20,019 nucleotides of DNA, taken from UHGV virus genome UHGV-1706396, one strand, 5' to 3'. Shown here piece by piece: positions 2,545 to 15,820 of the stretch; the stretch's first letter is position 1; every line of letters starts with the position of its first letter. The position numbers and the translations under genes were made by a program. Under the pieces are notes generated by a model. That model had not been told where the DNA came from and searched no databases. It saw only the letters and a list, made by a program, of their open reading frames with translations. This stretch comes from a virus.

Positions 2545-3453
2545 ATGATTGGTAAGTTGTCTGATTCTTTGATTGAAAATAAATACAACGAATTTAGAGA
2601 AGAAATATCTTTACTTTTTGACTATTTAAATCAGATAAATGATACAACAAAGAAAAATATAAAACGTCTTCTAAAAGAAGTGGAGTATGCACAGAATCCA
2701 GATACTATTATTAATATTAATGAAACTATTAAGATTAAGTGTGGCACAACGTTAGCTCGCCATTTATGTTCAAACCCATATACAGGTTCAACATTAGAGA
2801 TAGGTAACAGCGCCATTGATTTAGAAGAAAAGATAAGATTGTGTAATGTTTTGAAGAATAAACAATATCAGTGGGTTATTACTGAAGCCTATGAGTTACT
2901 GGAAGACTATATTGAGGCAATATATGTCTATACTGTATGTGTTCGAAATGATTTCTGGTCCTCAAGTAATTTTGGTAAGGTTGAAGATGATGACATTGGG
3001 AAAGGGGAAGTTTATTACAAATTATTAAAAGCAAAAAGTAACCCATCGAAAAAAATAATTAAAATTTTCAGAAATAAAATACCTGGCTTCAAAGAGATAG
3101 AAATAAACAACAAGATTGGTAAAAACTATCGCTTTAACATCAAGCTAATTGAACTACTAAGACATACAATAGTACACAATAGTGGACGATTCAATGATAC
3201 AGAAAAATTTATAAATAAGGTTTTAGATGAATCTGAAATAAACGGTAAGAAAAGAGTTATTGGAGAAAGAGCTGTTAGAAGTTACATTGCTAAAGTGCAA
3301 GAAGATGATATTGTAATGCTCTTAGAAAGACCATCTGAAATTTTTGGTTCTTTTGGTGGTTATTTTAACAGAGCAAAATTTTTACTAAGTGATATTTTAG
3401 AATACTCACTAATCATTAAAGAAGAACTAAAATCATATCTAGGCAATCATTAA
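2545..3453 (+). CDS. AT-rich accessory protein of unknown function with HEPN-like Rx4H motif; candidate abortive-infection / defence protein
   Basis: 302-aa ORF, markedly lower GC than its neighbours (K/N/I-rich); GAGG RBS 6 nt upstream; R206-H211 motif RHTIVH (nt 3160-3177) fits the HEPN Rx4-6H consensus with a polar residue after Arg; opposite strand to flanking genes; own terminator. Confidence 0.55.
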   Translation: MIGKLSDSLIENKYNEFREEISLLFDYLNQINDTTKKNIKRLLKEVEYAQNPDTIININETIKIKCGTTLARHLCSNPYTGSTLEIGNSAIDLEEKIRLCNVLKNKQYQWVITEAYELLEDYIEAIYVYTVCVRNDFWSSSNFGKVEDDDIGKGEVYYKLLKAKSNPSKKIIKIFRNKIPGFKEIEINNKIGKNYRFNIKLIELLRHTIVHNSGRFNDTEKFINKVLDESEINGKKRVIGERAVRSYIAKVQEDDIVMLLERPSEIFGSFGGYFNRAKFLLSDILEYSLIIKEELKSYLGNH

Positions 3454-3454
3454 C

Positions 3455-3486
3455 AAAAAAAGGGGCCGAAGCCCCTTTGAATTTTG
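3455..3486. terminator. Bidirectional rho-independent terminator between the AT-rich gene and the tRNA cluster
   Basis: Hairpin AGGGGC-cgaa-GCCCCT (3461-3476) followed by TTTGAATTTTG on the plus strand and by a 7-T run on the minus strand (the A-run at 3454-3460). Confidence 0.75.
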
Positions 3487-3552
3487 CGCTGAAAAAAGTG
3501 TTGCTAGGATGTTAGCAAGCTATGGTTAAGAACGTCTGCCGTAATTGTCTAT

Positions 3553-3630
3553 CACAGCGTTGAGCGGTCTGGTTTATGTTAGCGGAGTCTTAATCTGGGT
3601 GATTAAAAGGCCAAACCGCTCAACGCTGTG
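3553..3630. repeat. Long inverted repeat (20-bp arms, 19/20 complementary, 38-nt loop) immediately 3' of the tRNA cluster
   Basis: CACAGCGTTGAGCGGTCTGG at 3553-3572 and CCAAACCGCTCAACGCTGTG at 3611-3630; arm sequence related to the repeat at 4901-5022. Confidence 0.6.
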
Positions 3631-3632
3631 TC

Positions 3633-3719
3633 TGGCGGAGAGTAATGGAATCGAACCATCATCGCTTGCGCAATGGGACGGTTTTCAAGACCGCTTGAGC
3701 ACCATGCTCCCTACTCTCC
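3633..3719 (-). tRNA. tRNA-Ser (anticodon TGA), class II with long variable arm
   Basis: Hand fold of the minus strand: acceptor GGAGAGT/ACTCTCC, anticodon stem GCGGT/ACCGT with loop CTTGAAA, T-arm GATGG-TTCGATT-CCATT, encoded CCA. D-arm is atypical (short loop or 3-nt linker). Confidence 0.65.
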
Positions 3720-3905
3720 GGCCGTTGTGGTGGCCGGTACTGAATCTCCGGCATACGGTGCAGCCAATTAGGACTACGGACGATCACCGCTCGCGAAAGG
3801 GAAGGTTTGCGGCCGCATTTCCCTAACATCCAAGAAAGCTATCGCATCAGTCTGCGAATCCACCACAACGGAAAGAGCATTCACGTCTCGCGTGCCACCA
3901 CGAAT

Positions 3906-3929
3906 GGCAACTCAGAGAGTCGAACTCTG
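3906..3929 (-). other. tRNA-like 3' fragment (T-arm plus acceptor 3' strand) without a recognisable 5' half; pseudo-tRNA or possible att core
   Basis: Minus strand reads CAGAG-TTCGACT-CTCTG-AGTTGCC with conserved G53, T54 T55 C56, A58, C61, but no D-arm or anticodon arm could be folded upstream. Confidence 0.3.
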
Positions 3930-4387
3930 AAAATGCTCTTACCTGTTGTGTGCTGTGTCACTCCCTCCGCTATTACCTGGCTTTGCCTCGACCTTTTAGG
4001 TTGCGTCCGATGATAAACAGGGCTGTCGGAAATTTGTCTGTGACACAGCGATAAGAGAACTCGATGCATTTAAGCCAAGCCCCATATGGGAAGTTCTCTT
4101 ATCTGTTGTGCGCTCCGTTTCGTGGAGCTAACGGCGGGTGAACAGGCCGCACCAGGTTGGACATATTTCAGCGTTATGCTGTTGCAAGAGAGCCAAATTG
4201 TGATGGTCGGTGCTGAACTCCGACACAGGGTTGTAGCAAGCCCCGCAAAGCGCGCACTACTGTAGTTGCGGCACATCAGCCTGTGCATTCACCACAATGT
4301 TGAGAACACTGGTTGTCACGCTGCAACGCAACATTTATTCATAGATTGGGATATGACCCCGTTACGCCAATGTTCTCAATATTATGT

Positions 4388-4463
4388 TGGTGCCGGTTAA
4401 CGGACTTGAACCGCTGACCATTCGCTTACAAAGCGACTGCTCTACCAACTGAGCTAAACCGGC
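4388..4463 (-). tRNA. tRNA-Thr (anticodon TGT)
   Basis: 76 nt: acceptor GCCGGTT/AACCGGC, D-stem GCTC/GAGC, anticodon loop TTTGTAA (27-43 pair mismatched), T-arm AGCGG-TTCAAGT-CCGTT, encoded CCA. Confidence 0.8.
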
Positions 4464-4467
4464 AATT

Positions 4468-4554
4468 TGGTGGGGAGTGATGGAGTCGAACCACCCGAGT
4501 CGCAATGACAGTAGATTTACAGTCTACCCCGCTACCCCTACGGACTAACTCCCC
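4468..4554 (-). tRNA. tRNA-Tyr (anticodon GTA), long variable arm
   Basis: 87 nt: acceptor GGGGAGT/ACTCCCC, anticodon arm GTAGA-CTGTAAA-TCTAC, T-arm GGTGG-TTCGACT-CCATC, discriminator A, encoded CCA. Confidence 0.85.
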
Positions 4555-4559
4555 TAAAT

Positions 4560-4634
4560 TGGCGATGGTGGGTGGATTCGAACCACCGACCAGTTGGTTA
4601 ACAGCCAACTGCTCTACCGCTGAGCTACACCATC
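4560..4634 (-). tRNA. tRNA-Asn (anticodon GTT)
   Basis: 75 nt canonical cloverleaf: acceptor GATGGTG/CACCATC, D-stem GCTC/GAGC, anticodon arm GTTGG-CTGTTAA-CCAAC, T-arm GGTGG-TTCGAAT-CCACC, encoded CCA. Confidence 0.9.
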
Positions 4635-5837: not shown

Positions 5838-5854
5838 GATGTATGGAATCATTT
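5838..5854. promoter_or_regulatory. Recurrent motif GATGTATGGAATCATTT (third site)
   Basis: 17-mer identical to 4826-4842; about 135 bp upstream of the 5413-5703 gene start. Confidence 0.35.
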
Positions 5855-6064
5855 TAACACTCCTGATTCTACTAATTGCTGTAGCAATACTTTCCCTTTA
5901 TCAGTTAACTGGTAGTTGGCCGAACACTTCGTTTCAGAAACGTTTGCAACCAACCCTAACCGCTCTAACTTAGCCCGCGTTTTAGGCTTCCAGTACTCAG
6001 GGAACTCTGACCACTTACTGATTTCATGAAGCGTTTCCTTCTCCCGCTTACTTAATACGATCAT
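5849..6064 (-). CDS. Hypothetical small protein (71 aa)
   Basis: ORF with AAGGAG RBS about 8 nt upstream; start lies inside the 3' end of the preceding small ORF. Confidence 0.5.
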   Translation of the reverse strand: MIVLSKREKETLHEISKWSEFPEYWKPKTRAKLERLGLVANVSETKCSANYQLTDKGKVLLQQLVESGVLK

Positions 6065-11542: not shown

Positions 11543-11585
11543 GTGCTTTCCTTTGTTTTTTAAACAAATTGTTTTCTAGTATTAG

Positions 11586-12608: not shown

Positions 12609-13376
12609 ATGGACGATTTATCGGTATACGCGAGATCATTGGATAAGGCTAAATACTATGTTTACTGTCTCTATGATACAGAAGACAAGATGAAAAGACC
12701 GTTTTACATAGGAAAAGGCAAATCGACTCGTTGTCTCGATCACATCAAGTATCCCGATGACTCTCCCAAATCCATGCGGATCAAAGAACTTTTGGCTAAT
12801 AAAAAATTAGGCATAGATATTCTTCGTCATGGTATGGATGAAACCACAGCCAAACTTGTTGAGGCGACATGCATCGACCTTATGGGGGTCGGAGAGCTTA
12901 CGAATAAGGTACGAGGAAGTGGTTCCATGATGGGCAGAATATCACTGGACGCCTACCATCACTTAGTGCTGCAAGAGGAAACTGAAATTGCTCCTGAGCA
13001 CGCCGGTCTTGCCTTCCTGCTAAACAGCACCTACAAGTCAGGAATGTCCGCTCTGGCATTATATGAAGCTACGCGTGGCGTATGGGCAAAGGTTCCAAGA
13101 GACGAGAATCTCAAATATGCCTACGCTACATATGGTGGGCTGATAATGGAAGTTTATCAGATTGAATGCTGGGTCAAAGCCGGTTCTCAGCAGTACTTTA
13201 CAAGGGATATAGCTCTTGGCCCCGACACAAAACGTTATGAATTTGTTGGCAGAATAGCCGATGAGCATATTAGAAAACTGTATGTAGGCAAATTAATCAA
13301 GAAGCCACCAAGCTACGGTAGCCCTTTTGTGAAGGTTGGGGTGGTTAGGACTGAACATAGTGTTAGCGCGGCATAA
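12609..13376 (+). CDS. GIY-YIG nuclease-domain protein with uncharacterised C-terminal domain (homing-endonuclease-like or defence nuclease)
   Basis: N-terminal YYVYCLYD...PFYIGKGKSTRCLDH matches the GIY-YIG core pattern (compare UvrC VY..YD..YIGKAK..R); lone plus-strand gene with its own terminator. Confidence 0.55.
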   Translation: MDDLSVYARSLDKAKYYVYCLYDTEDKMKRPFYIGKGKSTRCLDHIKYPDDSPKSMRIKELLANKKLGIDILRHGMDETTAKLVEATCIDLMGVGELTNKVRGSGSMMGRISLDAYHHLVLQEETEIAPEHAGLAFLLNSTYKSGMSALALYEATRGVWAKVPRDENLKYAYATYGGLIMEVYQIECWVKAGSQQYFTRDIALGPDTKRYEFVGRIADEHIRKLYVGKLIKKPPSYGSPFVKVGVVRTEHSVSAA

Positions 13377-13392
13377 AGCTGACATTGTACTT

Positions 13393-13430
13393 ATGCATTG
13401 GCGCGTACATTGCGCCAATGCATAATTTTT
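13393..13430 (+). terminator. Rho-independent terminator after the GIY-YIG gene
   Basis: 12-bp perfect stem ATGCATTGGCGC / GCGCCAATGCAT with 7-nt loop, followed by AATTTTT. Confidence 0.7.
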
Positions 13431-13788
13431 AACCTTTCTTCATCAACTCTCGTTTGATTTCATCGGTACGCATCGTGACATCGGCAGCTGTGATCGCCTC
13501 GTTAAGTTTCACGATGTCCTCGATTTCCTGCGGTGACTTCTCTGCCAGATGGAAAATGGCTGCTCGAATCACGTCTGAACGAGTGAACTTCTCGAAGCGA
13601 GGGATGAACTTCATCATCTCCAGCAGTTCGAAGTATTCGTCCTCCAGTGACATTGTGCGGCTTTTAATTTTCTCTTTGCCACGAGTCGGGCGTCCCTGTG
13701 GTCTGAGTGGTTGGCGCAAAGGAGTTGTATTCTTAGCCGGTTCATCAGTCTCTTTGCGCTTTGCTAGGTCACCCATTTTCATGGACAT
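13429..13788 (-). CDS. Small partition protein, ribbon-helix-helix type (ParG/ParB-like centromere-binding protein)
   Basis: 119-aa ORF coupled to parA (TAATG overlap); basic disordered N-terminus then RHH-like segment KSRTMSLEDEYFELLEMM...SDVIRAAIFHL. Confidence 0.5.
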   Translation of the reverse strand: MSMKMGDLAKRKETDEPAKNTTPLRQPLRPQGRPTRGKEKIKSRTMSLEDEYFELLEMMKFIPRFEKFTRSDVIRAAIFHLAEKSPQEIEDIVKLNEAITAADVTMRTDEIKRELMKKG

Positions 13789-14456
13789 TATTCTTCTTCC
13801 TCCAGACTCAACAGATAATCTACAAATTCTTCAAACTCGGCTTCCGCTTTTTTGTCGCGCTCGCTACCGATCATTTCAAAGATAGAACGACCAGACTCTT
13901 CCGCATCATCGTAGACGTTGCGGTTATATAGATTGACTGGCGCAGACTCGATGCCAAACGTCTCAACAATCTCTTTAGCCGCCAGAATGCGAGACACTTG
14001 TGATGGCAAAGCCGGGCACTGGTTCATGACAGCGCGGACCTTCACTTTATCGTTTACATTACGAACATTGTCGATAATAGGATCGATGTCACGCAGAGAT
14101 TTCAAATCACGACGCTTAGGGCGAAGCGGGATAATGATAACGTCGGCCATCAGCATCGCTTGTCGCTGAATTTCGGAGTCAAAGCCACCAGCATCTACCA
14201 CTACAAACTCAGCTCTACCCTGAAGCGATTTTAGGTGCTTAATGATGTCATCCTGAACGTATGCAAAAGGTATCAGCTCAAGGTCTTCGTTCTGTCGACG
14301 GTCTTCACACCAGCTTGTTGTCGTGCGCTGAATATCTATATCAGTGATATAAACCTTCTTCTTCTTTTTGATTTTCAGGCAAACGGCAATTTGCTGGGCA
14401 ACGGTGGATTTGCCAGGCCCGCCCTTTGTGCCGCCAACCACAAAGATCTTGGTCAT
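13788..14456 (-). CDS. parA: ParA/ParF-family partition ATPase (type Ib)
   Basis: 222-aa ORF with deviant Walker A near the N-terminus (GGTKGGPGKST); followed by a small coupled gene. Confidence 0.8.
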   Translation of the reverse strand: MTKIFVVGGTKGGPGKSTVAQQIAVCLKIKKKKKVYITDIDIQRTTTSWCEDRRQNEDLELIPFAYVQDDIIKHLKSLQGRAEFVVVDAGGFDSEIQRQAMLMADVIIIPLRPKRRDLKSLRDIDPIIDNVRNVNDKVKVRAVMNQCPALPSQVSRILAAKEIVETFGIESAPVNLYNRNVYDDAEESGRSIFEMIGSERDKKAEAEFEEFVDYLLSLEEEE

Positions 14457-14679
14457 TGGAGAGTTCCCTTTGCGTCTATTATTATCGTCTGAAACAACTT
14501 GTTTTCTTATATGTGATATAGCCTAAATGCCTACGGCTACGGTGTAAAGGTTAAATGGTAGGTTGTGGTTAACAATTGGCAATCATTGCTTGTATTTGCC
14601 TGTTGAAAAAAGTAACAATGACCTCTATATTACAAGTACGGTGATATGCCGTACACAATTTGATAATGCACACGTAATG

Positions 14680-14689
14680 GGCTATAGCC
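14680..14689. promoter_or_regulatory. Palindrome GGCTATAGCC overlapping a candidate -10 of the toxin-antitoxin promoter (possible autoregulatory operator)
   Basis: TTGATA (14660-14665), 17-nt spacer, TATAGC (14683-14688); nearby GTACGG-N7-CCGTAC inverted repeat at 14636-14654. Confidence 0.3.
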
Positions 14690-14774
14690 TTTTAAAGTAA
14701 TTTTTGAGTCGAAAACTCAGTTTGAACAGAGGAGATTGATGGCCTTCCTACATCACGGCCATCAGGAGGAATAC

Positions 14775-15044
14775 ATGTCAGCACTAAAAAAGCAGCGCAT
14801 CGATTTGAGATTAACCGATGACGATAAAAGCATCATCGAGGAAGCTGCCGCAATGTCTAACCAGAGCATTACTCAGTTTATGGTTAGCAGTGCATCTGAA
14901 CGTGCCGTGAAAGTTATAGAGCAACACCGTAGACTAGTTCTGAATGAAGAATCCTGGAATCTGGTTATGGACGCTTTAAGCAATCCTCCGGCACCGAACG
15001 ACAAGCTGAAACGAGCTGCTGATCGTCTGAAAAGCATGGAGTAG
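14775..15044 (+). CDS. DUF1778-type antitoxin (TacA/AtaR-like) of a GNAT toxin-antitoxin pair
   Basis: Small ORF immediately upstream of the GNAT toxin gene. Start placed at the ATG at 14775, which has an AGGAGG RBS 5 nt upstream, rather than the TTG at 14736. Confidence 0.75.
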   Translation: MSALKKQRIDLRLTDDDKSIIEEAAAMSNQSITQFMVSSASERAVKVIEQHRRLVLNEESWNLVMDALSNPPAPNDKLKRAADRLKSME

Positions 15045-15051
15045 TTTACTC

Positions 15052-15573
15052 GTGGATAATATAAAGATAGAAATTTTCTCTGGAGAGAAAGATTATGATT
15101 TGAATGGTTTTGATTGCGGTGAAGAATCACTAAATGCCTTTTTAACCAACCACTTAAAAAGGCAGCATGAGGGAAAAATTCTTCGCGCTTATATGCTTTG
15201 CACTAAAGAAGACAGACCAAAAGTGTTAGGGTATTACACTTTGTCAGGCAGCTGCTTTGAAAAGGAGTCCTTACCTTCAAGAAGCCAGCAAAAGAAGGTA
15301 CCTTATCGGAATGTTCCAAGTGTTACTTTGGGCAGACTGGCTTTGGACAAATCTCTTCAAGGTCAAGGATTTGGCTCAATGCTTGTAACACACGCTATGC
15401 GTGTTGTGTATAATGCCTCTCTTGCTGTTGGTATTCATGGACTCTTCGTTGAGGCGTTGAATGATAAAGCTAAGGCGTTTTATAAAAGTCTGGGCTTTAT
15501 CCAGTTGATTGGAAACAACGAGCGATCTTTGTTCTATCCAACAAAATCTATCGAAAAATTGTTCGAAGAATAA
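15052..15573 (+). CDS. GNAT-family acetyltransferase toxin (TacT/AtaT-like)
   Basis: 173-aa ORF with GTG start 7 nt after the antitoxin stop; GNAT core VTLGRLALDKSLQGQGFGSMLV; closely resembles my recollection of E. coli AtaT (not verified). Confidence 0.8.
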   Translation: MDNIKIEIFSGEKDYDLNGFDCGEESLNAFLTNHLKRQHEGKILRAYMLCTKEDRPKVLGYYTLSGSCFEKESLPSRSQQKKVPYRNVPSVTLGRLALDKSLQGQGFGSMLVTHAMRVVYNASLAVGIHGLFVEALNDKAKAFYKSLGFIQLIGNNERSLFYPTKSIEKLFEE

Positions 15574-15604
15574 TGTACTCCCCTCAAATGAGGGGAACTT
15601 CGCA

Positions 15605-15820
15605 TCACCAACCGCAAACTCTCTCTCCCATCGTATTGTGAAAAAGGATTTGGCGTTCGGTTTCTTCGGTCATTACATCATTATTGCTGATATAGATAGG
15701 CTCAGCTCCATCGCAGAACAATACGCTGGCGGTTTGTGGTTTAATGACGCACCCACTTATCATACAACTCACGATGAACGGCAGAAGCATCTTTCTGACG
15801 TATTTTATTGCTCGTCTCAT
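15605..15820 (-). CDS. Putative o-spanin (Rz1-like outer-membrane lipoprotein), overlapping the i-spanin 3' end
   Basis: 71-aa ORF with basic n-region, hydrophobic core and lipobox ISGC; overlaps the i-spanin gene in another frame. Confidence 0.45.
   Translation of the reverse strand: MRRAIKYVRKMLLPFIVSCMISGCVIKPQTASVLFCDGAEPIYISNNDVMTEETERQILFHNTMGERVCGW

Follow-up and report, generated by a model that had tools for sequence, protein, structure and literature searches.

A partition operon and an AtaT/KacT-type toxin-antitoxin pair in the probable maintenance region of an SSU5-like phage-plasmid

The window analysed here, the whole 20,019-nt stretch of viral DNA from UHGV virus genome UHGV-1706396, very probably contains the plasmid-maintenance region of a phage-plasmid of the SSU5/pHCM2 type, a temperate siphovirus that E. 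coli cells carry as a circular plasmid at low copy number. The region comprises four open reading frames (Table 1), parA and a 119-aa partner being divergent from an antitoxin and a toxin gene, which is the layout given in a preliminary description of this DNA (a par operon divergent from a DUF1778/GNAT pair). One flank holds replication genes (DnaB-like helicase, primase, ligase), the other a holin/endolysin/Rz/Rz1 cassette annotated in phage Cyrano, and an integrase gene and four tRNAs lie within the window, so that the earlier placement of the maintenance modules between phage replication genes and a lysis cassette, in an element with integrase and tRNAs, was borne out.

Identity of the element was established from its relatives. 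The region matched circular, non-mobilizable E. coli and E. albertii plasmids (~105–120 kb, replicon type rep_cluster_488) at 96–98% identity, and the window matched Escherichia phage Cyrano (pLF82) and phage CMS-2020a at about 96–97%, and Salmonella phage SSU5 at 81–86% with gene order in common; near-identical plasmid records of the Cyrano/SSU5 type number in the hundreds. Among 5,426 complete E. coli genomes, 264 (~5%) carried an SSU5-type phage-plasmid, and the 265 copies of the par region found in them were all on plasmids (265/265, 0 chromosomal), against the chromosomal integration considered in the preliminary description. No rep gene was found in the 20-kb window, and the extrachromosomal state is read from the relatives, on whose replicon a RepB-family initiator is encoded elsewhere, where the preliminary description had suggested looking for one. 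Taken with the identity to SSU5 and Cyrano, these observations uphold the earlier proposal of an SSU5/pHCM2-like extrachromosomal prophage. Cyrano, a published phage-plasmid, is present at ~5.5 copies per cell and forms virions, and its lysogen transcribes the par and toxin-antitoxin genes (PMC9928086); virion production is on record for SSU5 too. The virion-related content of the window was limited to lysis and tail-fibre genes. Decayed E. albertii derivatives (62–64 kb) retained RepB, par and the toxin-antitoxin pair, and in one of these plasmids (63.8 kb) the 50 kb that were examined carried no annotated virion gene.

Gene order in Cyrano follows that of the window, with tail fibre, lysis cassette, KacT-type toxin-antitoxin pair, parA and small ORF in sequence, and helicase, primase, ligase, tRNAs and integrase in the same order on the other side. 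The two differ between the small ORF and the helicase side, where the window has a PD-T4-3-like GIY-YIG gene and Cyrano a different ORF, and in their tRNAs, four in the window against three annotated in the corresponding part of Cyrano; SSU5 lacks the toxin-antitoxin pair, and two unrelated ORFs occupy its slot. An Rfam search of the window returned only tRNAs, and a "second place" reported in related plasmids turned out to be just a self-complementary terminator hairpin and was discarded. The earlier reading is correct but ordinary: annotation and publications already cover the genes of SSU5-like phage-plasmids and what they mean, so it adds no new biology. Published work nevertheless ties SSU5-type phage-plasmids to resistant lineages of Shigella and Salmonella Typhi, and this link, together with their presence in ~5% of complete E. 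coli genomes, makes it worth knowing what retains phage-plasmids in cells.

Table 1. Features of the par and toxin-antitoxin region, in window coordinates
Feature	Position	Strand	Remarks
Terminator	13391..13425	+	Perfect 14-bp-arm hairpin, then T-run; between PD-T4-3-like gene and par operon
ParA partner, 119 aa	13429..13788	-	Alternative start 13782; presumed centromere-binding adaptor
parA	13788..14456	-	222-aa small Walker-type partition ATPase without N-terminal HTH extension (type Ib-like)
Conserved par control block	14457..14563	-	Best candidate for par promoter, operator and possibly centromere
13-bp palindrome AAACAACTTGTTT (AAACAA-N-TTGTTT)	14492..14504	.	Between inferred parA promoter and ribosome-binding site
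Inferred parA promoter	14520..14548	-	TTTACA (14548-14543), 17-nt spacer, TAGGCT (14525-14520); read from sequence
Promoter-like site, toxin-antitoxin operon	14603..14631	+	TTGAAA-17-TATATT, 10/12 consensus
Toxin-antitoxin operator GTACGG-N7-CCGTAC = GTACGGTGATATGCCGTAC	14636..14654	.	Predicted from KacAT operator match
Palindrome GGCTATAGCC	14680..14689	.	In toxin-antitoxin leader
Antitoxin, 89 aa	14775..15044	+	DUF1778/TacA family, AtaR/KacA type; in-frame alternative starts TTG 14736, ATG 14739
GNAT acetyltransferase toxin, 173 aa	15052..15573	+	AtaT/KacT type; Pfam GNAT families, PDB matches
Terminator-like hairpin	15577..15598	-	End of minus-strand lysis operon, just before toxin gene

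ParA carries the deviant Walker A motif KGGPGKS at residues 11–17, matches the Pfam families MipZ (8e-14), AAA_31, CbiA and ParA, and has ParF of TP228 (4dzz) as its best PDB match (2e-10, residues 9–198). In size and motif it falls among type Ib ATPases (about 190–310 aa, deviant Walker A, no HTH), and the likeness to type Ib systems (ParF-ParG-parH of TP228; delta-omega of pSM19035; par2 of pB171) extends from this small HTH-less ParA to a small partner, encoded downstream, whose N-terminus is basic and flexible, and to control DNA upstream of parA. It departs from them in three respects: neither in sequence nor in fold could the partner be matched to ParG or omega, a conserved ~100-bp block with two TAGGC boxes takes the place of iterated tetramer or heptamer boxes, and the parA promoter also bears an element-wide palindrome.

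The partner is translationally coupled to parA, its start codon overlapping the parA stop codon (TAATG), and the two genes were adjacent in every relative, synteny holding in 18/18 related loci down to 35% identity. At the level of genes, a small downstream partner in the parA operon is thus present as in type Ib, centromere binding by its product being presumed. The protein consists of a disordered basic N-terminus with a conserved MGDLAKR peptide, followed by a helical C-terminal domain. Searches of Pfam and the PDB with the single sequence and with a profile gave nothing usable, a profile search run exhaustively across 1.84 billion proteins turned up just 18 relatives, none of them connecting the partner to a named family, and a confident structure model yielded no fold match. 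Alignment by hhalign likewise gave negative results with CopG, Arc, Mnt, ParG, omega and the antitoxin of the window, the sole signal being the N-terminus of NikR (P=0.0016). A ribbon-helix-helix (RHH) fold of the partner is tentative. The "small RHH protein" of the preliminary description stands as a small ParA-coupled ORF for which RHH is a label, the Pfam and PDB sequence searches of the window protein having come back empty.

Other functions for both par proteins were weighed. That the ATPase is a MinD/MipZ/Soj-type positioning or regulatory protein with no part in partitioning the element is suggested by its top Pfam family, by the MipZ name carried in some RefSeq records, and by ~40%-identical homologues on large Alteromonadales contigs and one complete chromosome, but we regard it as improbable, since the best solved match along its full length is the plasmid partition ATPase ParF, whereas the structural match to MipZ covers the N-terminal half only. 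Moreover, all placeable relatives at ≥50% identity lay on plasmid records or phage-plasmid-like contigs (mostly ~50–110 kb, some loci being short metagenome contigs) and were accompanied by the same small gene for the partner, and the Alteromonadales homologues (5 of 34 loci checked) also had a small partner, in 3/5 with an RHH_1 match just below threshold. The chromosomal MinD/Soj-type alternative named in the preliminary description does not agree with these results. For the small ORF, annotation of its Cyrano counterpart (CYRAN_29) as a RelE/ParE toxin would make it a toxin rather than a partition protein, which is extremely improbable: no ParE/RelE family match was found for it even at E<=10 and no PDB match, its gene is coupled in translation to parA in all relatives, no cognate antitoxin gene is present, and a disordered basic N-terminus joined to an all-helical domain is unlike the RelE fold. 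At least one reference genome wrongly names the partner a toxin.

Upstream of parA, the DNA from ~14488 to 14563 was nearly invariant among E. coli, Salmonella SSU5, Klebsiella pJN2-26, Kluyvera and Buttiauxella elements, while par coding DNA across the same elements was only ~80% identical, and homology with SSU5 broke off abruptly at ~14563. The candidate par control or centromere DNA is accordingly placed at 14457-14563, rather than at the palindromes named earlier. Within this block, the spacer of the putative parA promoter contains CCGTAGCCGTAG (14542-14531), and a TAGGC-N3-TAGGC motif begins at 14521; TTTACA-N17-TAGGCT was kept in a 67%-identical locus, L016, also with two TAGGC boxes 8 bp apart. 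The motif occurred once in a 110-kb relative, on which no TAGGC-box cluster was found anywhere, and with a single 8-bp-spaced pair the idea of TAGGC boxes as centromere units was set aside as weak. No repeat array was detected in 13300-15700, where short two-copy families occurred at chance level only, so that a centromere of iterated short repeats next to the operon, as in type Ib, was not found. No description of SSU5 operators or centromere was found in the searchable literature.

The interval between parA and the antitoxin gene measures 279 bp if the antitoxin starts at TTG 14736 and 318 bp if it starts at ATG 14775. The intergenic region given earlier (14457-14735) thus has the right size only with the TTG start, whereas PGAP (which calls a 270-nt antitoxin gene in relatives), alignment with KacA/AtaR and an AGGAGG ribosome-binding site favour ATG 14775.

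Both proteins of the toxin-antitoxin pair are close full-length homologues of AtaR-AtaT (E. coli O157:H7) and KacA-KacT (Klebsiella pneumoniae). The antitoxin matched Pfam TacA1 (E=1.9e-26) and, over its full length, KacA (5zgn, 1.3e-41) and AtaR (6ajm, 7e-41), with R8, D10 and R12 identical to the DNA-reading residues of KacA, and the toxin matched AtaT (6gts, 1.4e-79) and KacT (5zgn, 4.8e-75), also at full length, with the acetyl-CoA motif QGQGFG at 103 and Y144 aligned with the catalytic Tyr of KacT (Y145). The likeness includes operator half-sites and their spacing just after the -10 box. GTACGG-N7-CCGTAC (0.03 expected per window) lies 5 nt past the -10-like box, the TTGAAA and TATATT hexamers being kept in the 89%-identical module of L054, and agrees with the crystallised KacAT operator AAATGTACGGTTATTAACCGTACATGA (PMC6698736) in its half-sites and in the 7-nt length of its spacer. 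It was also present upstream of chromosomal ataRT (O157:H7), in L054 and in Kluyvera locus L014, with identical arms and differing spacers. The pair here, on a phage-plasmid and adjoining par, differs from O157 ataRT, which is chromosomal between livJ and panM, in its leader of ~120 nt, which contains GGCTATAGCC and a further in-frame start upstream, both lacking there, and DNA identity to the chromosomal genes was only ~66%. GGCTATAGCC was kept in L054 and absent from the O157 ataRT and Kluyvera leaders; a perfect 10-bp palindrome in ~300 bp has a chance expectation of ~0.3 by our own estimate and is therefore unremarkable. The predicted fold of the leader RNA was not more stable than that of shuffled sequences (z=-0.40).

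The usual place of a type Ib centromere is upstream of parA, and the two palindromes named in the preliminary description as "centromere or operators" do fall in that shared intergenic region, but it is very unlikely that they are the partition centromere, as both lie in the cargo half beyond ~14563, where homology to relatives that have par and lack the toxin-antitoxin pair ends. GTACGG-N7-CCGTAC travels with ataRT/kacAT even on chromosomes without par and is predicted to be the toxin-antitoxin operator, not a centromere, and GGCTATAGCC was found only with this toxin-antitoxin variant; the operator half of the earlier suggestion therefore holds for GTACGG-N7-CCGTAC, and the centromere half does not. 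The pair itself was absent from SSU5, PhiR41_1 and Klebsiella relatives and is therefore dispensable for maintenance, and the end of SSU5 homology at ~14563 marks it as swappable cargo, acquired separately from par. Whether it serves mainly as anti-phage (abortive-infection) or competition cargo instead of as an addiction device, roles that are compatible, was considered, and a mainly defensive role is possible but the less probable of the two. The slot is variable, with unrelated genes in SSU5, PhiR41_1 and pJN2-26 (whose ORFs gave no Pfam or PADLOC match), a PD-T4-3-type defence gene lies on the other flank of par, ApeA/HEPN and Abi_2 genes flank par in a distant relative, and the Cyrano authors class the pair among lysogen-expressed morons (PMC9928086). 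Against this, neither toxin nor antitoxin matched any PADLOC model, the pair adjoins par and is retained alongside RepB and par in decayed E. albertii plasmids, which fits maintenance, and the family members studied so far have been characterised as growth-arrest modules.

For partition, we propose that the partner binds the nearly invariant DNA upstream of parA (14457-14563), a block that would also contain the par promoter, and that its conserved basic N-terminus (MGDLAKR and tail) may stimulate the ParA ATPase, by which copies of the element would be moved into both daughter cells. GNAT toxins of the AtaT/KacT family acetylate charged tRNA (initiator Met-tRNA for AtaT) and so stop translation, and the antitoxin neutralises the toxin in a toxin-antitoxin4-toxin hexamer with one toxin at each end. 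In the mode established for the family, the antitoxin would repress its operon at GTACGG-N7-CCGTAC, a site spanning the start of transcription. The antitoxin being the labile member of the pair, cells losing the element would be arrested in growth, a post-segregational addiction that may back up partition. No partition or addiction assays for SSU5-type par or toxin-antitoxin genes were found in the searchable literature.

The 13-bp palindrome at parA, assigned to a putative operator family found near promoters across the element, was kept in every close relative and recurs in the window at 11562-11574, 5' of the helicase gene. In a relative (NZ_CP023851), 18 sites were found at <=1 mismatch, against 0.36 expected, most of them 10–60 nt 5' of an ATG and after a GATAAT-like box, and the promoters of the helicase gene, of nrdB and of an operon in the packaging region are among the ~18 that bear the palindrome. 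No description of the AAACAA-N-TTGTTT palindrome was found in the searchable literature. The par operon could be wired into an element-wide regulon in which the partner binds the dispersed palindromes and acts as global regulator and distributed centromere at once, which would make it a phage counterpart of omega (pSM19035) or KorB (RK2); we consider this reading unlikely, and the sites are more likely targets of a separate phage repressor or activator than of the partner. The HTH protein at 429-815 and the small regulator at 5849-6064 are candidates for the protein that binds them. A common promoter-proximal palindrome hints at simple shared control of plasmid-state genes.

The four ORFs were found in the window in the layout of the preliminary description, with a par operon, in which the parA stop codon overlaps the start of the partner ORF (TAATG), lying divergently from a toxin-antitoxin pair. 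The surroundings were also as described, with a DnaB-like helicase, primase and ligase on one flank, holin, endolysin, Rz, Rz1 and then a tail fibre (by the Cyrano annotation) on the opposite flank, and an integrase and four tRNAs also in the window. ATG 14775 is most likely the antitoxin start: it fits the AGGAGG ribosome-binding site, PGAP chooses it in relatives, and the alignment to KacA then runs from residue 1. The divergent intergenic region would accordingly be 318 bp, against 279 bp with an upstream start. An in-frame TTG/ATG lies 12–13 codons 5' of the probable start (window 14736–14777), within an 8-bp stem (GATGGCC...GGCCATC) that ends at the AGGAGG site and is not significant by folding energy, and is possibly an alternative start or a means of translational control.

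Features of the par region and its flanks, in window coordinates unless a relative's locus is named
Feature	Position	Strand	Remarks
GIY-YIG (LEM-3-like) ORF, 255 aa	12609–13376	+	PADLOC match to PD-T4-3, E=1.3e-23, nearly whole profile
ParA partner ORF, 119 aa	13429–13788	-	No Pfam match
parA, 222 aa	13788–14456	-	Pfam MipZ, AAA_31, CbiA, ParA
TTTACA-N17-TAGGCT	First in block ~14488–14563	parA strand	Plausible parA promoter; retained in 67%-identical relative
CCGTAGCCGTAG		parA strand	Within N17 spacer of candidate promoter
TAGGC-N3-TAGGC		parA strand	After spacer element, before palindrome
Palindrome AAACAAGTTGTTT	14492–14504	parA strand	Between TAGGC-N3-TAGGC and ribosome-binding site
parA ribosome-binding site		parA strand	Last element of block
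Toxin-antitoxin operator GTACGGTGATATGCCGTAC	14636–14654		6-bp arms identical to KacAT operator, same 7-nt spacer
Palindrome GGCTATAGCC	14680–14689		In long toxin-antitoxin leader; retained only in closest variant
DUF1778/TacA antitoxin	Start most likely ATG 14775	+	ORF 5' of toxin; Pfam TacA1 E=1.9e-26
GNAT acetyltransferase toxin	15052–15573	+	Pfam GNAT families
parA–lysis cassette slot	~14564–15600; L003 3678–4834; L004 3820–4995; L005 3846–4403		Cargo hot spot; L003–L005 are loci of relatives without the pair

Many circular, non-mobilizable plasmids of ~105–120 kb from E. coli and E. albertii share 96–98% identity with both the 2.4-kb region and the window as a whole; Escherichia phages Cyrano and CMS-2020a are similarly close, and Salmonella phage SSU5 is at 81–86% identity. 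Among 5,426 complete E. coli genomes, 265 copies of the par region were counted in 264 genomes, all plasmid-borne and 0 chromosomal. A search for a plasmid rep gene, as previously proposed, found a RepB-family initiator on the close relative NZ_CP023851 (110,452 bp, circular, rep_cluster_488), ~19 kb from the position corresponding to the window start. Cyrano (pLF82) has been published as an SSU5-like phage-plasmid that is kept at ~5.5 copies per cell, forms siphovirus particles and, in the lysogen, transcribes the small ORF as well as the KacT-type toxin and its antitoxin (PMC9928086), and the SSU5 supergroup has been well described as a family of phage-plasmids (PMC7969092). On account of these matches, the initiator and the publications, the interpretation as an SSU5/pHCM2-like phage-plasmid is supported, and the feature had been known and annotated before; neither a single-copy chromosomal location with att sites nor a chromosomal MinD/Soj-type ParA was found. 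The observation itself was confirmed, with corrections to the palindrome roles, the RHH fold of the partner and the toxin-antitoxin pair, which is cargo.

The 2.4-kb region finds its best matches in half-size E. albertii plasmids, namely NZ_CP034165 (63.8 kb) and six records like it of 62–64 kb. NZ_CP034165, the one examined, retains RepB, par, the toxin-antitoxin pair and replication genes, bears IS elements, hdeAB and a shortened dnaE, and has no annotated virion genes in the 50 kb of 63.8 kb examined; these plasmids appear to be decayed phage-plasmids. The window tRNAs (Ser, Thr, Tyr, Asn) number four, where the Cyrano annotation has three in the corresponding part (positions concerned, 3633–4634 and 2545–3453); the tRNA stretch is 94–95% identical to unrelated phages (vB_EcoM-Ro157c2YLVW, P7), and the adjoining 302-aa ORF has no family match, relatives carrying other genes at that site.

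The description of a type Ib-like ParA stood: the protein lacks an HTH extension, and its Walker A motif, KGGPGKS, is of the deviant form; among solved structures the type Ib prototype, ParF of TP228, is its best relative over nearly the full length, with MipZ matching the N-terminal half only. The 119-aa ORF was concluded to be the ParA partner. Its family is very small: one database has 25 clusters of it, and a second, of 1.84 billion proteins, has 18 representatives. The ORF follows parA in 18/18 loci with ParA of at least 50% identity, including Morganella, Xenorhabdus and metagenomic relatives. Family members share an N-terminal MGDLAKR, a variable linker, a basic tract (RPQGRPTRGK), KSRTMSxEDE and four helices with the signature FTRSDVIRAAI. 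The proposed RHH fold is less firm: RHH_1 fell at the expected place, below threshold, in 2/17 members, and the partner profile matched the small partners of ~40%-identical Alteromonadales ParA homologues in beta-alpha-alpha register (P=0.0013), of which 3/5 have RHH_1 just below threshold and most start MxLxDLKK. Fold searches gave no match for the partner even with a model core of pLDDT >90, a monomer model being a poor test of an intertwined dimer. Weak as the sequence-level signals are, they point one way, towards RHH. The ~40%-identical homologues (L020–L053; Colwellia, Thalassotalea, Shewanella and others; match ~3001–3606) are found on large contigs, one of them a complete 4.2-Mb chromosome, with a small ORF directly downstream in 5/5 loci checked, suggesting a wider ParA-adaptor family. 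In Cyrano the partner (CYRAN_29, L001 8999–9358, equivalent to window 13429–13788) is labelled 'RelE/ParE putative toxin', which no search supports, and is counted as a toxin moron (PMC9928086).

Upstream of parA, ~14488 to 14563 hardly varies between E. coli, Klebsiella, Kluyvera and Buttiauxella, with adjacent coding DNA ~80% identical, and this block is the leading candidate for both the par operator and the centromere. The repeat array of type Ib systems is absent: parH and omega sites are arrays of iterated boxes, whereas none like them was found at the par region or elsewhere on the 110-kb relative. The palindrome GTACGG-N7-CCGTAC had been offered as centromere or operator, and only the latter role held. 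As its arms and spacer length match the KacAT crystal operator, AAATGTACGGTTATTAACCGTACATGA (PMC6698736), and the same arms, with other spacers, lie 5' of chromosomal ataRT (O157:H7), an 89%-identical module (L054) and a Kluyvera phage-plasmid module, it is assigned as the toxin-antitoxin operator; it starts 5 nt past a promoter-like site, TTGAAA-17-TATATT. The leader palindrome is not unusual by chance, and folding of the leader revealed no special RNA structure. Instead of the GGCTATAGCC stretch, the leader of Kluyvera sp. STS39-E (L014 ~2560–2720) has short tandem repeats of GAAAACT/GAAAATC units between operator and antitoxin start.

The toxin matched AtaT (6gts, E=1.4e-79) and KacT (5zgn, 4.8e-75) over its full length, with Y144, the counterpart of KacT Y145, and the acetyl-CoA motif QGQGFG, and the antitoxin matched KacA (1.3e-41) and AtaR (7e-41), retaining R8, D10 and R12, with which KacA was shown to read its operator. 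Toxins of this family acetylate charged tRNA, and the antitoxin neutralises them in a toxin-antitoxin4-toxin hexamer, with one toxin per end, and represses transcription with conditional cooperativity. Through such a pair the host would become addicted to the element.

SSU5, PhiR41_1 and Klebsiella relatives align only with window 13431 to ~14563, past which each has different ORFs before the lysis cassette. Where the window has the AtaRT/KacAT-type pair, SSU5 carries two unrelated ORFs, PhiR41_1 another two and Klebsiella pJN2-26 a single one; Pfam and PADLOC match none of them. By this comparison the pair is cargo. The match to PD-T4-3, a single-gene anti-phage defence, lies on the opposite flank of par and is absent at that position in SSU5, and in a distant relative par is flanked by ApeA/HEPN and Abi_2 genes. 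This makes the par operon a conserved island with a cargo slot on each side.

The 13-bp palindrome at parA, AAACAA-N-TTGTTT, has a second window copy at 11562–11574, 5' of the helicase gene, and NZ_CP023851 has 18 sites with at most 1 mismatch against 0.36 expected (7335, 19749, 30426, 33356, 63686, 63711, 72828, 73592, 74495, 74979, 76161, 77774, 77825, 87553, 90460, 91174, 91903 and 102123). Most lie 10–60 nt 5' of a start codon, gene-oriented, after a GATAAT-like box, often with TCT directly following (printed strand), and precede genes including parA, helicase, nrdB and a packaging-region operon. Relatives keep the palindrome at parA and the helicase gene, but the Morganella/Xenorhabdus group, which is more distant, lacks it. 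The palindrome looks like a promoter-proximal operator shared across the element, and no description of it was found in the searchable literature. Between two palindrome-bearing promoter copies, NZ_CP023851 carries full-length metG (methionine-tRNA ligase) and apbC, ordinarily chromosomal genes, at 77922–81213 (L006 23622–26913).
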